Positions 4,359 to 16,297 of a stretch of DNA of 32,000 nucleotides are shown piece by piece. The position numbers and the translations under genes are program-made. Position 1 is the first letter of the stretch. Each line of letters starts with the position of its first letter. Source of the DNA: an uncultured archaeon (GTDB lineage: Archaea; Asgardarchaeota; Lokiarchaeia; Sigyniarchaeales; Promethearchaeaceae); assembly GCA_964426185.1 (NCBI GenBank), contig CAYRPF010000002.1, forward strand, positions 67,283-99,282, given 5' to 3'. The notes beneath the pieces are model-generated. The model was not told where the DNA came from, did not search any database, and saw only the letters and a list, made by a program, of their open reading frames with translations.

Positions 4359-4772
4359 TTATTTTAAGGGAACAAATTGGCTTGAACGGGTAGCTCCGAC
4401 ACCCGGATTACCATGACTTACTTTTTTATTTGTAGGGGAGTACTCGCCTAAATAATGTCCAATGTGTTCTGGAGTAATTTTTACCGGAATGAACTCTAAT
4501 CCGTTATGTACCGCAATGGTTAATCCAATAAATTCTGGGAAAATAATCATGTCACGATTATGGGTGCGAACCACCATATCTCGACCATTCTTAGCAGCTT
4601 TTTTCGCCTTTTTTAATTTTCTCAAGAATTTCTTCTGTCTTCGAGGCATACCCCGCTTCAAACTGCGTCGCTGTCGGGAAGGAAGTAATTCCATAAACTG
4701 TTTCATGGACATACGCCGTAATTCATCCAGGTTTTTTCCCCGATATAAGAATTTATGTTTAGTTTCAGACAT
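4359..4772 (-). CDS. rps19p: 30S ribosomal protein uS19
   Basis: [59 protein letters not shown]. Confidence 0.97.
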
Positions 4773-4868
4773 CAAGAATCACATAATAATATCATACTTG
4801 CTATAACCATCTCAATGGGGCATAAATTAATAATTTTTTGATTTTGGAAGTGAATCTTAATTTTAGTG

Positions 4869-5629: not shown

Positions 5630-6751
5630 TTATTGGATTACTACTTTACTACACGTTTTTAGGAAGGTTTCGTCAAACTCTGCACCCAATCCAGGACCGT
5701 CGGGAAGAATTACTGTCCCATTTTGATCAATTTTGTATTGTATGCCTCCAATAATGGGATCGTCTTTTAATATTAAAGCTGAATCTAAATCCACAAATTC
5801 TATATTTGGAAATGCAGAAGTGAAATGAGCAGCAGCAGTCAAACCTAAGCGAGTTTCATCAAAACACCCTATCATACAGCGAATACCTGCAGATTGTGCA
5901 ATAGTATTAATTTTCATCGCCGTAGAAATACCCCCGGATTTCATTAACTTGATATTTAGGTAATCACATGCTTCCATGTCAATCAGACGTAAAGCATCAT
6001 GATGATCAAATACTGATTCATCAGCACAAATTGGGATGGAAGATCCTTGTCTTAATTGCCGCATCCCTTTAAAATCCCACGTTGCAAGAGGTTGTTCAGA
6101 AAATAATATATTTAAAGGTTCAATTCGTTTCAATATTACTTTAGCTTGAGCCAAATCCCATCCTTGATTGCTATCTATCTTAATTTCAATATTTTCTCCA
6201 ATTGCTTTGCGAACAGCGGCAATATGTTTAACATCTTCAAATTTTGGACGACCTACCTTTAATTTTAACGATTCAAAACCGTCATCTACGATTTGCTGAG
6301 CAAGTTCAACAGTTTGTTGAACCGTTTCTTGAATTCCCACGGTTAAATCTGTGTGTAAAACCCGTTTTTCACCACCTAAAAGACTATAAACTGGAATATT
6401 TTGTACTTTTCCTAAAATATCATAAAGTGCCATATCAAATGCTGCCCGAATAGAAGAATTATAAATAAGGGAATGGTTGATTTCATTCATTCGAACTTCT
6501 ACTTCCAGAGGATTTTTACCTATTAATTGTCGCGCATAATACTTTGCAGCTTCAAAATCGGTTTCTTGGAAAGTCCCCAATATATAGGGATCAGAACTCG
6601 CTTCTCCAGTTCCAAAAATATCGGAATTAGTCAGAATTTTGATCACAACAGAACTTGCATCTTTATAATTCCCTAATGAAATGTTGAATGGGATTGAATA
6701 GTTTATATTAACTTTATATAGTTCAACAGCCCTAATTTTTAAATTTTCCAT
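5630..6751 (-). CDS. dipeptide epimerase (L-Ala-D/L-Glu epimerase-like, enolase superfamily)
   Basis: KLKVG, DSNQG, EQP, DES, NIKLMKSGG and DLD motifs; ATG 6751 (alternative TTG 6763). Confidence 0.88.
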   Translation of the reverse strand: MENLKIRAVELYKVNINYSIPFNISLGNYKDASSVVIKILTNSDIFGTGEASSDPYILGTFQETDFEAAKYYARQLIGKNPLEVEVRMNEINHSLIYNSSIRAAFDMALYDILGKVQNIPVYSLLGGEKRVLHTDLTVGIQETVQQTVELAQQIVDDGFESLKLKVGRPKFEDVKHIAAVRKAIGENIEIKIDSNQGWDLAQAKVILKRIEPLNILFSEQPLATWDFKGMRQLRQGSSIPICADESVFDHHDALRLIDMEACDYLNIKLMKSGGISTAMKINTIAQSAGIRCMIGCFDETRLGLTAAAHFTSAFPNIEFVDLDSALILKDDPIIGGIQYKIDQNGTVILPDGPGLGAEFDETFLKTCSKVVIQ

Positions 6752-6924
6752 AGATATTAGCAATATTCGATGTAAATAAAAATTTGCTATATTGAGAGTA
6801 TTTAATAATTTCTAAAATCTAAGTTTATTGTTTTTTCTTCAAAATTTATGCCGATGTTCTTGTGATCATCCTAAATTTAAACGATTTTCCTTTTTCTATA
6901 TGAGAATCTTTTCTTTTTAGAAAT

Positions 6925-6940
6925 GAAACTTTCTTAAAGC
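6925..6940 (+). promoter_or_regulatory. candidate BRE/TATA promoter for the ribosomal protein operon leader
   Basis: GAAACT-TTCTTAAAG resembles an archaeal BRE+TATA and lies ~55 nt upstream of the first hairpin. Weak evidence in AT-rich DNA. Confidence 0.3.
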
Positions 6941-6991
6941 AAAAGCATCTTAAATGGGAAAATTGGAGAAAATTCGCTTAATCATTCTATA

Positions 6992-7285
6992 AAAAGATGT
7001 CGATTTTCCAATCTGTTGGGCTGCATGCCGACAGAATCGAAAATTTATTTAATGATCGACATTTTTTAATCCTAATAAGTTGTGTTAAGGATTGATCGGG
7101 ATTGACTTTTGTTAATCATCAAGATCTTCTTTTGCACAACTCGCATTTCAAGCGCCGAGGAATGCAAAAACTCGGGCGTGAGTATGCCCCAAATCTGATA
7201 TAATCAGAATTTGGGCACCATATTCACTTTGATCACAATCGTAAATGATATTTCACGATTTTGGTTAATGGAATTAGTCAAAATC
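6992..7285 (+). ncRNA. putative structured 5' leader RNA (or independent ncRNA) upstream of rpl22
   Basis: Six consecutive stem-loops read by eye; the non-Watson-Crick stem pairs are G-U on the + strand; no ORF of 60 aa or more in the track. Confidence 0.55.
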
Positions 7286-7314
7286 TTTAAATCACAATAA
7301 AGGAACGAATCTAT

Positions 7315-7782
7315 ATGCCTAACTGGAAAATAAGTGTTCAAGGCTTGGACCCGGATCGGACAGCAATAGCGGTGGGTCGAGAACTGGATGTTTCTCCTAA
7401 AAATACCCGCGAAGTATGTAATACAATTAAAGGGATGAAACTTGAAACCGCAAAAAGTTATTTAGAAGATGTTATTTTGATGAAAAAACCGGTTCCCTTC
7501 AAACGTTATAACAAAAAAGTAGGCCATCGACATGGTCTGAAAAGATTTAAATTTGCATCCGGTCGTTTCCCTGAAAAATCCGCTCGAATGGTTTACGAAG
7601 TACTCATGAATGCCGAATCTAATGCAGAATATAAAGGATTAGATCCTGAACGATTAAAAATTACTCATTCTGCAGTCATGCGAGGACGAAAAATCAAAAA
7701 ATATATTGAACGCGCCCACGGAAGAAGTACTCCGTATTTTAGAGTGTTAACTCATATTGAAATCGTTTTAACTGAAATATAG
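7315..7782 (+). CDS. rpl22p: 50S ribosomal protein uL22
   Basis: VSPKNTREVC, PVPFKRYNKKVGHR, GRFPEK, ERAHGRST, THIEIVL. Confidence 0.97.
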   Translation: MPNWKISVQGLDPDRTAIAVGRELDVSPKNTREVCNTIKGMKLETAKSYLEDVILMKKPVPFKRYNKKVGHRHGLKRFKFASGRFPEKSARMVYEVLMNAESNAEYKGLDPERLKITHSAVMRGRKIKKYIERAHGRSTPYFRVLTHIEIVLTEI

Positions 7783-7792
7783 AGTGAAAATT

Positions 7793-8629
7793 ATGCCAGT
7801 CAAAAAACATTTTGTTAATCGAGGACTTCAAAATACTTTAATTGAAGAATATTTAGCGTCTGAACTTGATAATTCAGGATATGCCGGATGTTCGCTTCAA
7901 AAAACACCCATGGGGACTCGAATTACGATAAGAACCTCTAGACCAGGAATTGTAATCGGACGACGAGGTGCTAAAGTCAAAGAATTGACCGATTCAGTCA
8001 AAGAAAAATTCGATATCAATGTTCCAACTATTGATGTCGAAACTGTGGAAAACCCTGAATTGAATGCTCAAATTCAAGCAGAACGTATTGCATATGCAAT
8101 TCAAAAAGGTCAAAATTATCGACGTGCCACCTACAGCATAATTCGACGCATCATGCGTTCTGGTGCACGGGGGATAGAAGTTCATATCAGTGGAAAAGTG
8201 ACTTCTCAACGTGCACGCCAACAAGTATTTCGTGCTGGAGTAATTTCTAAATGTGGATTTCCTGCTGAAGTAGGTGTTTCACGTGGTGTTTGTCATTTAA
8301 CCTTAAAATCAGGTGTCTTAGGAATTCGAGTGAAAATTATGCCGGAATCTTATCAACTTCCTGACGAAGTAAAAATTTTAGAAGGAATTTTTGATCGTGA
8401 AACTGAAGAAAAGAAACCCGATGAAGGTGTGGATCCTTTCTATCAAGATGAACTTCCTGAAGAGCCAGAAGAACCCGAAGATATTTTTGAGGATACCAGC
8501 GATGCGGAGGAAAAATCTGTAACTGTCAGCGAAGATATAGAAGTAGTTGATGAAGAAGAGGATTTAATTGACGATATTGTTGAAGAAGAGGACGAGATCC
8601 CAGATATCGATGTAGATCTTGATTTGTAA
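7793..8629 (+). CDS. rps3p: 30S ribosomal protein uS3, long acidic C-tail
   Basis: KTPMGTRITI, RPGIVIGRRG, GARGIEV, GVLGIRVKIMP; ATG 7793. Confidence 0.97.
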   Translation: MPVKKHFVNRGLQNTLIEEYLASELDNSGYAGCSLQKTPMGTRITIRTSRPGIVIGRRGAKVKELTDSVKEKFDINVPTIDVETVENPELNAQIQAERIAYAIQKGQNYRRATYSIIRRIMRSGARGIEVHISGKVTSQRARQQVFRAGVISKCGFPAEVGVSRGVCHLTLKSGVLGIRVKIMPESYQLPDEVKILEGIFDRETEEKKPDEGVDPFYQDELPEEPEEPEDIFEDTSDAEEKSVTVSEDIEVVDEEEDLIDDIVEEEDEIPDIDVDLDL

Positions 8630-15799: not shown

Positions 15800-16297
15800 A
15801 TGCCAACAAAATTTCAAAGAAAAAGTCGGAAACAACATGGTAATCGAACTCGAGGTTATGGAACCATTGGTGCTCATCGAGCTAAAGGTCAACGTGGTGG
15901 AACTGGATTAACTACTGGTAAATTCAAGCATAAATGGTCTTATTATTTAAAGATGAAGAAACTAGGTTTTCCTGGCCCTGATGGTGAAAAGTGGAAAATT
16001 GGAAAACGTGGTTTTAAACAACCTCCTCAAGTTCAACGTTTACATCAAGTGAAAGCAATTAACTTGAAAGATGTGGAGGAAAAATTACCACAATGGGTAG
16101 AAGCGGGTAAAGTTGAGAAGAAAGGAGATAAATATATCATAGATTTACACGCTTTAAATTACAATAAATTACTCGGAAAGGGAAAGGTTACTAAAAATCT
16201 TGAAATTTCTGTTGCACGTGCATCGGAATCTGCCATTGCAAAGATGAAAGAAGCCAATGCTGTGTTAAAATTAACTGCGGAAGCGGATAAAAACTAA
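15800..16297 (+). CDS. rpl15p: 50S ribosomal protein uL15
   Basis: RKSRKQHGNRTRGYG, GQRGGTG, YNKLLGKG, ASESAIAK; ATG 15800. Confidence 0.96.
   Translation: MPTKFQRKSRKQHGNRTRGYGTIGAHRAKGQRGGTGLTTGKFKHKWSYYLKMKKLGFPGPDGEKWKIGKRGFKQPPQVQRLHQVKAINLKDVEEKLPQWVEAGKVEKKGDKYIIDLHALNYNKLLGKGKVTKNLEISVARASESAIAKMKEANAVLKLTAEADKN

Follow-up and report, generated by a model that had tools for sequence, protein, structure and literature searches.

The window, that is, the whole 32,000-nt stretch of DNA analysed here, carries a ribosomal protein operon headed by rpl22 and, on its 5' side, a divergent gene of the mandelate-racemase/enolase superfamily (Table 1). The operon consists of 18 tightly packed genes for 17 ribosomal proteins and the RNase P subunit Rpp29, in the order uL22, uS3, uL29, Rpp29, uS17, uL14, uL24, eS4, uL5, uS14, uS8, uL6, eL32, eL19, uL18, uS5, uL30 and uL15, and ends at 16297, where a convergent TPR gene follows. 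Products from uL22 to uL15 were all assigned, which bears out the 18-gene ribosomal protein operon described in an earlier sequence-only reading of this DNA. The Shine–Dalgarno-like (SD-like) motif in front of rpl22 has counterparts of the AAGG(A/U) type in most of the related genera discussed below, 9-14 nt 5' of the ATG.

Table 1. Features of the rpl22 upstream region and its flanking genes; positions are those of the window.
Feature	Position	Strand	Description
Mandelate-racemase/enolase-superfamily gene	5630-6763	-	Divergent from rpl22
Spacer, 550 nt	between the enolase-superfamily gene (5630-6763, -) and rpl22 (7315-7782, +)		Lies between the two genes of the divergent pair
Inverted repeat TCTGTTGG/CCGACAGA	7012-7035		8 bp; just 5' of the BRE; inner hairpin of H1
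BRE/TATA-like block CGAAAA-TTTATTTAA	7038-7052	+	From the alignment; reads as an archaeal BRE and TATA box
Predicted transcription start	~7074 (7072-7078)	+	Start of the TATA box (TTTATTTAA, 7044) plus 30 nt
H2	7078-7141	+	5'-proximal hairpin, 64 nt here (expanded); conserved core GAUC-loop-GAUC; z = -5.2
H3	7152-7177	+	7-bp stem, bulged G, 11-nt loop GAAUGCAAAAA; AUGnAAAA invariant; from covariance model matches
H4	7178-7227	+	No linker to H3; 9-bp lower stem GUGAGUAUG/CAUAUUCAC
3' tail, semi-conserved	7228-7235	+	UUUGAUCA here, CUUAUCCG in Promethearchaeum; retained by the diverged copy of g3
H5/H6	7229-7285	+	Lineage-specific hairpins, in part of the genus only; outside the conserved core
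Shine–Dalgarno-like AAGGAA	7300-7305	+	9 nt 5' of the rpl22 ATG
rpl22 (uL22)	7315-7782	+	First gene of the operon; Pfam PF00237, E 1.5e-28

The spacer between the two divergent genes folds far better than expected from its composition. On the plus strand, the minimum free energy (MFE) fold of 6985-7314 reaches -101.8 kcal/mol, compared with -65.8 +/- 5.2 kcal/mol for dinucleotide shuffles (z = -6.9), and 0/100 shuffles fold as well; for the minus strand the z-score is only -3.4. The helices H1 to H6 named in the sequence-only reading lie exactly where it had placed them and all of them occur in this MFE fold, so that at the level of a single locus its picture of a densely structured region is upheld, shuffle comparison included.

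Searches of the locus against known elements gave no assignment. With Rfam 15 at gathering thresholds the whole 32-kb window produced no match, so that no known family, including the archaeal S15, eL15 and L4 leaders, is recognised there, and with permissive filters the interval 6600-7450 yielded noise only (E of at least 1.3). Within the 3.26-Mb assembly the region has one full-length match, other matching stretches being at most 28 nt long at E of at least 0.07. This single copy, together with the single covariance model match per genome in relatives, rules out a MITE or another dispersed repeat; the many genomic copies that had been named as a finding fatal to the proposal are not there. 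A small ORF or leader peptide was rejected as well: the only ORFs are of at most 45 aa, and the frames opened by the AUG in the H3 loop differ in length and sequence between genomes, with UAA directly following in Lokiarchaeum, no conserved frame and indels that are not multiples of three. Identity with SRP RNA or RNase P RNA was likewise discarded, there being no family match at the locus and both genes being located elsewhere, on contig C10.

The comparative evidence comes from relatives of the source genome. BLAST recovered the region upstream of rpl22 in Ca. Harpocratesius repetitus FW102 (G001) over the full length at 74% identity; among more distant genomes, only a core of ~85 nt was matched in the third congener of the window's genus (G002), and ~39 nt in another genus. 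The four-way alignment contains two invariant blocks, CGAAAATTTATTTAATGATC (7037-7056) and the stretch from GCGCCG at 7152 to CAC at 7227. A covariance model of the H3 and H4 core (R1; 90 positions, 23 pairs) found exactly one match per genome in 10 genomes belonging to four genera of one family, f1, with E values from 1e-9 to 1e-22: three genomes of Harpocratesius, two of Lokiarchaeum, four of Promethearchaeum and one of genus g7. A pattern scan of metagenomes added five further matches, four of them new sequences, which brings the set to 14 distinct sequences in all.

The position of the element relative to rpl22 is constant. In 10/10 genomes it lies on the same strand as rpl22, 31-161 nt 5' of the ATG, the distance from the end of the model to the ATG being only 31 nt in G002. 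On its other side stands an unrelated divergent gene in Harpocratesius and in Ca. Lokiarchaeum ossiferum B35, and a same-strand rps19 in Promethearchaeum syntrophicum MK-D1 and in g7, separated from rpl22 by 424 nt in the former and by 585 nt in the latter. Since the upstream neighbours differ between genera and rpl22 remains, the element is linked to rpl22 and not to what precedes it. The flanks of the core are unalignable among the four genera.

Outside these genera the element fades quickly. Genus g3 has a diverged copy ~140 nt before rpl22 (L072 1280-1360 and L073 1286-1361; E 0.003-0.05), in which an H4-like hairpin keeps the CAC bulge and an AUAUCCG tail and H3 is shrunken or lost; the retention of H4 alongside the reduction of H3 suggests that H4 is the essential part. 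Nothing recognisable was found upstream of rpl22 in g4, which also belongs to family f1, and no copy was found in the genomes of family f3 that were searched (0/127). A second model, R2, was run on 149 genomes that represent 26 other Asgard families and detected no copy; with filters switched off, it also found none in 19 rpl22 upstream regions taken from other families, nor in that of g4.

From these comparisons the conserved RNA is predicted to comprise H2, a linker, H3, H4 and a short tail, with a total length of ~155 nt here and ~125-135 nt in most relatives. A hairpin stands 4-6 nt after the predicted 5' end in every genus, and in Promethearchaeum its loops are GAAA or GGAA. In H3, four of the seven pairs have changed on both sides and 98% of the cells are paired. 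H4 is divided by an asymmetric internal loop with C7187 on the 5' side and CAC (7216-7218) on the 3' side, and the C / YAC pattern is kept in 14/14 distinct sequences. Below this loop, 96% of the cells of the lower stem are paired, A-U being replaced by U-A, U-G or G-C; above it follow CCC/GGG (a CC/GG step) and a variable apical part, which in some lineages carries insertions of 10 to 35 nt. Because H4 starts at the nucleotide after H3, the two helices can stack.

This architecture revises the earlier one in several places. The hairpin proposed at 7185-7217 exists, and its extent was drawn too short, since H4 with its 9-bp lower stem really occupies 7178-7227. In place of the extension of H3 by GCATTTCA/TGAGTATGC, covariation backs the lower stem of H4 (GUGAGUAUG/CAUAUUCAC). 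The alternative fold in which GCAUUUCA pairs with UGAGUAUGC fares no better: it competes with the same lower stem and finds no comparative support.

Covariation was assessed on an alignment of the 14 distinct sequences (A6) that was fitted to R1 and represents few independent lineages (four genera). In it 96.3% of the cells form standard pairs, and double changes occur in 8 of the 23 pairs. Of 500 column shuffles, not one equalled the real alignment in any of the five covariation measures, and when pairing partners were slid by 1-3 columns as a control, only 26-56% of the cells remained paired; the comparison with relatives thus speaks for the structure, the controls collapsing. RNAalifold, applied to an independent MAFFT alignment of ten full leaders, returned the same H3 and H4 together with a small H2. 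The paired columns contain 30 G-U cells and 0 A-C cells, and this occurrence of G-U and never A-C indicates that the fold exists only in the RNA of the rpl22 sense strand. The sense-strand RNA originally deduced from G-U pairs at one locus is thereby confirmed, in agreement with the difference between the two strands in folding z-score. H2-H3-H4 is a real, conserved and strand-specific structured RNA of ~130-155 nt, present in one Lokiarchaeial family.

The first of the two invariant blocks places a putative promoter in front of this RNA. Its 20 nt do not vary among the three genomes of Harpocratesius, can still be recognised in Lokiarchaeum, Promethearchaeum and g7, and have the same form as the promoters of the 5S and 16S rRNA genes of relatives. 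In the 5S gene of H. repetitus, TTTAAATA begins 30 nt before the mature 5' end, and by analogy with this gene transcription is predicted to start 4 nt 5' of H2. Seven genomes have 66-71 nt between the TATA box and H3; the spacing is longer only in the window (108 nt) and in H. repetitus (89 nt), where H2 is expanded. In MK-D1, runs of T5-T7 lie after rps19 and before the promoter block, an arrangement that fits termination of the rps19 transcript followed by a fresh start.

Two observations adjoin this promoter block. On the 5' side of it, the T-rich runs TTTCCTTTTTC and CTTTTCTTTTTAGAA (6886-6925) are similar to the oligo-T region found after rps19 in MK-D1 and may be the relic of a former rps19 terminator. 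H. repetitus has three tandem 5S rRNA genes, ~375 nt apart (G001:C1:1399892-1400758), each apparently with its own TTTAAATA promoter.

The remaining hairpins belong to narrower lineages. The inverted repeat at 7012-7035 is kept, with changed bases, only in H. repetitus and is absent from the third congener and from the other genera; it is possibly a transcription-factor operator or a leftover, and in either case stands outside the conserved element. H1, of which it forms the inner part, is not conserved beyond one relative, straddles the promoter and has its 3' arm (7055-7067) 5' of the predicted start, so that it is probably absent from the RNA. H5 and H6 have the same sequence in H. repetitus, are absent in G002 and are replaced by unrelated hairpins in other genera; the repeated ATCACAAT is not conserved in H. 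repetitus. The structured leader of ~300 nt and six helices that the sequence-only reading had drawn is therefore too long at both ends, as H1 overlaps the promoter and H5/H6 are confined to the window and its closest relative; among its six hairpins, H3, H4 and the core of H2 are shared with relatives, and H1, H5 and H6 are not.

Taken together, the RNA is probably an undescribed control element of the rpl22 operon. RNA-leader feedback of ribosomal protein operons is textbook knowledge in bacteria, and a handful of archaeal cases or candidates exist. With a probability of roughly 0.5, the element is a cis-acting 5' leader of the rpl22 operon that is bound by a ribosomal protein encoded in that operon. 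The promoter block and the absence of terminators suggest co-transcription with rpl22: a scan of the locus for terminators found no terminator-like site, and in no genus does the interval from core to ATG contain a run of U5 or longer. The same two results remove the attenuator proposed alongside the leader, so that what survives of the original ribosomal protein leader is a single-copy, sense-strand structured RNA at the head of the operon, shorn of attenuation and of its full extent.

Under the leader reading, transcription would start at ~7074, H2 would form first and, ~10-20 nt later, H3 and H4 would follow, coaxially abutting. H3 would then present its invariant AUGnAAAA loop and H4 its invariant C / YAC internal loop, and it is to the H3-H4 module that one of the operon's own ribosomal proteins would bind. 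Candidate ligands are uL22, as the product of the nearest gene, and uS3, encoded by the second gene and pointed to by a weak resemblance of the leader to 16S helix 34 (see below); uS8, uL24 and uL5/uL18, known as primary rRNA binders, are possible as well. The ligand, once in excess over free rRNA, would bind the leader and lower the expression of rpl22, and repression would reach the whole operon through the tightly packed downstream genes. Initiation might be blocked or trapped, or the mRNA made less stable, and H2 at the 5' end may in addition protect the transcript.

Several simple routes to repression were looked for. In the predicted folds of eight full leaders, the SD motif and the AUG are not consistently paired. 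Sequestration of the SD motif was rejected as a general device, since the complementarity ACCUUAU/AUAAGGU (7 nt, between the H4 tail and the SD) is confined to Promethearchaeum and the other genera offer at most 4 bp. No pseudoknot between the H3 loop and flanking sequence is conserved, as judged by eye, and a helix P1 that would close the element by pairing the 5' flank with the 3' tail amounts to 2-4 A-U pairs only, inconsistent between genera. With SD and AUG not consistently paired, no conserved pseudoknot and no conserved AUG frame, the mechanism is not readable from sequence.

Resemblance to the rRNA site of the ligand, which is common though not obligatory in ribosomal protein leaders, is slight here. 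When R1 was run on the rRNA genes (23S, 16S and 5S) of two relatives, its best match had an E of 0.9 and fell in domain I of 23S rRNA; the loop there stays GGAAUG in MK-D1, and the H3 loop of the leader is GUUAUG in the same genome. A descriptor scan of rRNA for the C / YAC loop found nothing convincing. In Harpocratesius, the 5' strand of H4, GUGAGUAUGCCCCAAAUC, agrees with 16S positions 1164-1182 at 16/18 positions, a match equalled by 8 of 1000 dinucleotide shuffles, and a similar 16S match in one Lokiarchaeum is equalled by 15 of 1000. This 16S segment we take to be the 3' strand of helix 34, in the region of the head that binds uS3, uS14, uS10 and uS5. An antisense control scored as high as the 16S match, reflecting a hairpin in 23S domain II (~1277-1325) that has a 7-bp helix, GAGUAUG/CAUACUC, and an asymmetric loop (1x4) in common with H4. 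The equally high score of the control means that such alignment scores arise by chance, and a single set of 12 nucleotides cannot truly imitate two separate places in rRNA. Neither the 16S nor the 23S resemblance follows the changes of the leader in Promethearchaeum, and the best resemblances are marginal (p about 0.01-0.03) and point to two different rRNA sites.

Other explanations have to be weighed against a leader that senses a ribosomal protein. H2-H3-H4 might be an independent sRNA gene of ~130-170 nt with its own promoter, fixed beside rpl22 by chance and acting in trans or on another target; rpl22 itself would then be expressed from a proximal promoter, its mRNA having a short leader or none. 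The conserved block does possess its own BRE/TATA, the sequence between core and ATG, 31 to 161 nt long, is poorly conserved, and the variable hairpin that comes right after the tail in most genera could mark a 3' end. Candidates for the proximal promoter exist in the AT-rich, TATA-like strings found 27-38 nt before the ATG in the window, H. repetitus, G002, g6 and g7; these strings, however, are conserved neither in sequence nor in position, and a 5' UTR, if only a short one, follows from the SD-like AAGG located 9-14 nt 5' of the ATG. In no genus is the core followed by an oligo-U terminator, and while the upstream neighbours change, the element always lies next to rpl22 and in the same orientation. 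In G002 the end of the model and the ATG are only 31 nt apart. The missing terminator, the SD-like motif, the constant position next to rpl22 and the conservation of only one promoter block favour a leader over a separate RNA, and an independent sRNA is unlikely. That the spacer holds no functional RNA at all, the conservation being due to a DNA-level element (a transcription-factor site or the remnant of a mobile element) or to a neutral sequence that happens to fold, is hardly credible: AT-rich archaeal spacers do often fold, and H1, H5 and H6 are indeed lineage-specific, but the element is single-copy, compensatory changes keep its pairing, the strand-specific use of G-U and never A-C argues for RNA, and the core is conserved across four genera whose flanks cannot be aligned.

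A further alternative is an element of the rpl22 5' UTR that senses no ribosomal protein and serves stability or processing, as a 5' structure against 5'-3' exonucleases or as an endonuclease site, or else responds to a small molecule, an ion or temperature. All of the evidence for a cis-acting element applies equally to it, and the lack of convincing rRNA mimicry is in its favour. The position of H2, 4-6 nt from the predicted 5' end, is like that of protective hairpins, although a stability element would not need loop sequences that are invariant across genera. The invariant AUGnAAAA and C / YAC might make up a pocket for a ligand or take part in a tertiary contact, although the multi-helix junction or pseudoknot typical of aptamers was not found, which counts against a sensor of the riboswitch type; moreover, feedback by ribosomal proteins is the established logic for leaders of ribosomal protein operons (PMC7247131). 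On balance a UTR element of this other kind is likewise considered unlikely. Its boldest version, in which H2-H3-H4 gates the operon by sensing, in the manner of a riboswitch, a metabolite, an ion or a growth signal, or by docking a non-ribosomal factor, must be called improbable. Riboswitches are very few in archaea, and to our knowledge none controls ribosome synthesis; if true, this version would place 17 ribosomal proteins and Rpp29 under such a switch in the closest cultured relatives of eukaryotes.

In comparison with known systems, a leader bound by a ribosomal protein would be in familiar company. Like the bacterial S10 leader (bound by L4), the bacterial spc leader (bound by S8) and the archaeal candidates, the element is a covarying structure at the head of a multi-gene ribosomal protein operon, and like most such leaders it is restricted to one lineage. 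It differs from them in matching no Rfam family, although Rfam includes those leaders. In the Methanococcus vannielii L1 operon, L1 binds an mRNA site that mimics its binding site on 23S rRNA; this provides an archaeal precedent for ribosomal protein feedback through a helix with an asymmetric internal loop. The difference is that the M. vannielii site is a clear copy of the L1 site of 23S rRNA, whereas the rRNA resemblance of the rpl22 element is marginal and does not co-vary. Archaeal leader candidates described so far include S15-Halobacteria, S15-Methanomicrobia, eL15-Euryarchaeota and L4-Archaeoglobi (Eckert & Weinberg 2020, PMC7247131). The literature searched contained no ribosomal protein leader upstream of rpl22 or in Asgard archaea, and the element itself is undescribed there.

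Known RNA motifs were considered and set aside. A K-turn bound by L7Ae, with its 3-nt bulge and tandem sheared G-A pairs, does not agree with CAC/UAC being flanked by Watson-Crick C-G and A-U in all sequences. Against a box C/D or H/ACA guide, there is no loop of pocket size, and neither the CUGA at 7194 nor the ACA at 7235 is kept even within the genus (by eye). The defining features of a bulge-helix-bulge are absent or not conserved in the alignments.

The place of the element in the genome gives it a wider interest. In the window rps19, which normally precedes rpl22, is inverted and lies 2.5 kb away from it, at 4359-4775 (-); the same-strand copies of MK-D1 and g7 are located at L058 1841-2257 and L062 772-1203, respectively. 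Family f3 has the canonical tight rps19-rpl22 junction of 29-68 nt, and it is in this family that the search of 127 genomes gave no copy of the element. Among 29 sampled Asgard rpl22 loci outside f1 (including L183-L210), rps19 is missing from the 1.5 kb upstream of rpl22 in 16, and in three others it is separated from rpl22 by 546-1231 nt. The break between rps19 and rpl22 is common in the phylum, and separate leaders may have arisen in several of its lineages. The element lies at the exact break of the ancestral S10-type cluster and may show a new control point arising when an operon splits. It heads the largest ribosomal protein operon, and its presence in both cultured Asgard species, MK-D1 and L. 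ossiferum, makes the transcript, its ligand and its effect directly testable.

Some minor observations concern the operon and the RNA genes of the source genome. The uS3 protein (7784-8629, 281 aa) has a strongly acidic C-terminal tail of ~80 aa, and the tail of the f3 homologue (250 aa) is shorter and of mixed charge. On contig C10 of the source genome, the SRP RNA (54346-54663) and the RNase P RNA (45377-45665) give full-length matches to the archaeal Rfam models, at 81.6 bits against a gathering threshold of 96.5 and at 63.4 bits against 84, respectively; with such scores, routine Rfam annotation would miss both of these Lokiarchaeial RNAs. The 23S rRNA match of the same genome, on contig C35, consists of four collinear pieces with gaps at model positions 2143-2180 and 2351-2383, which may reflect insertions or expansion segments, or else the end of the contig.
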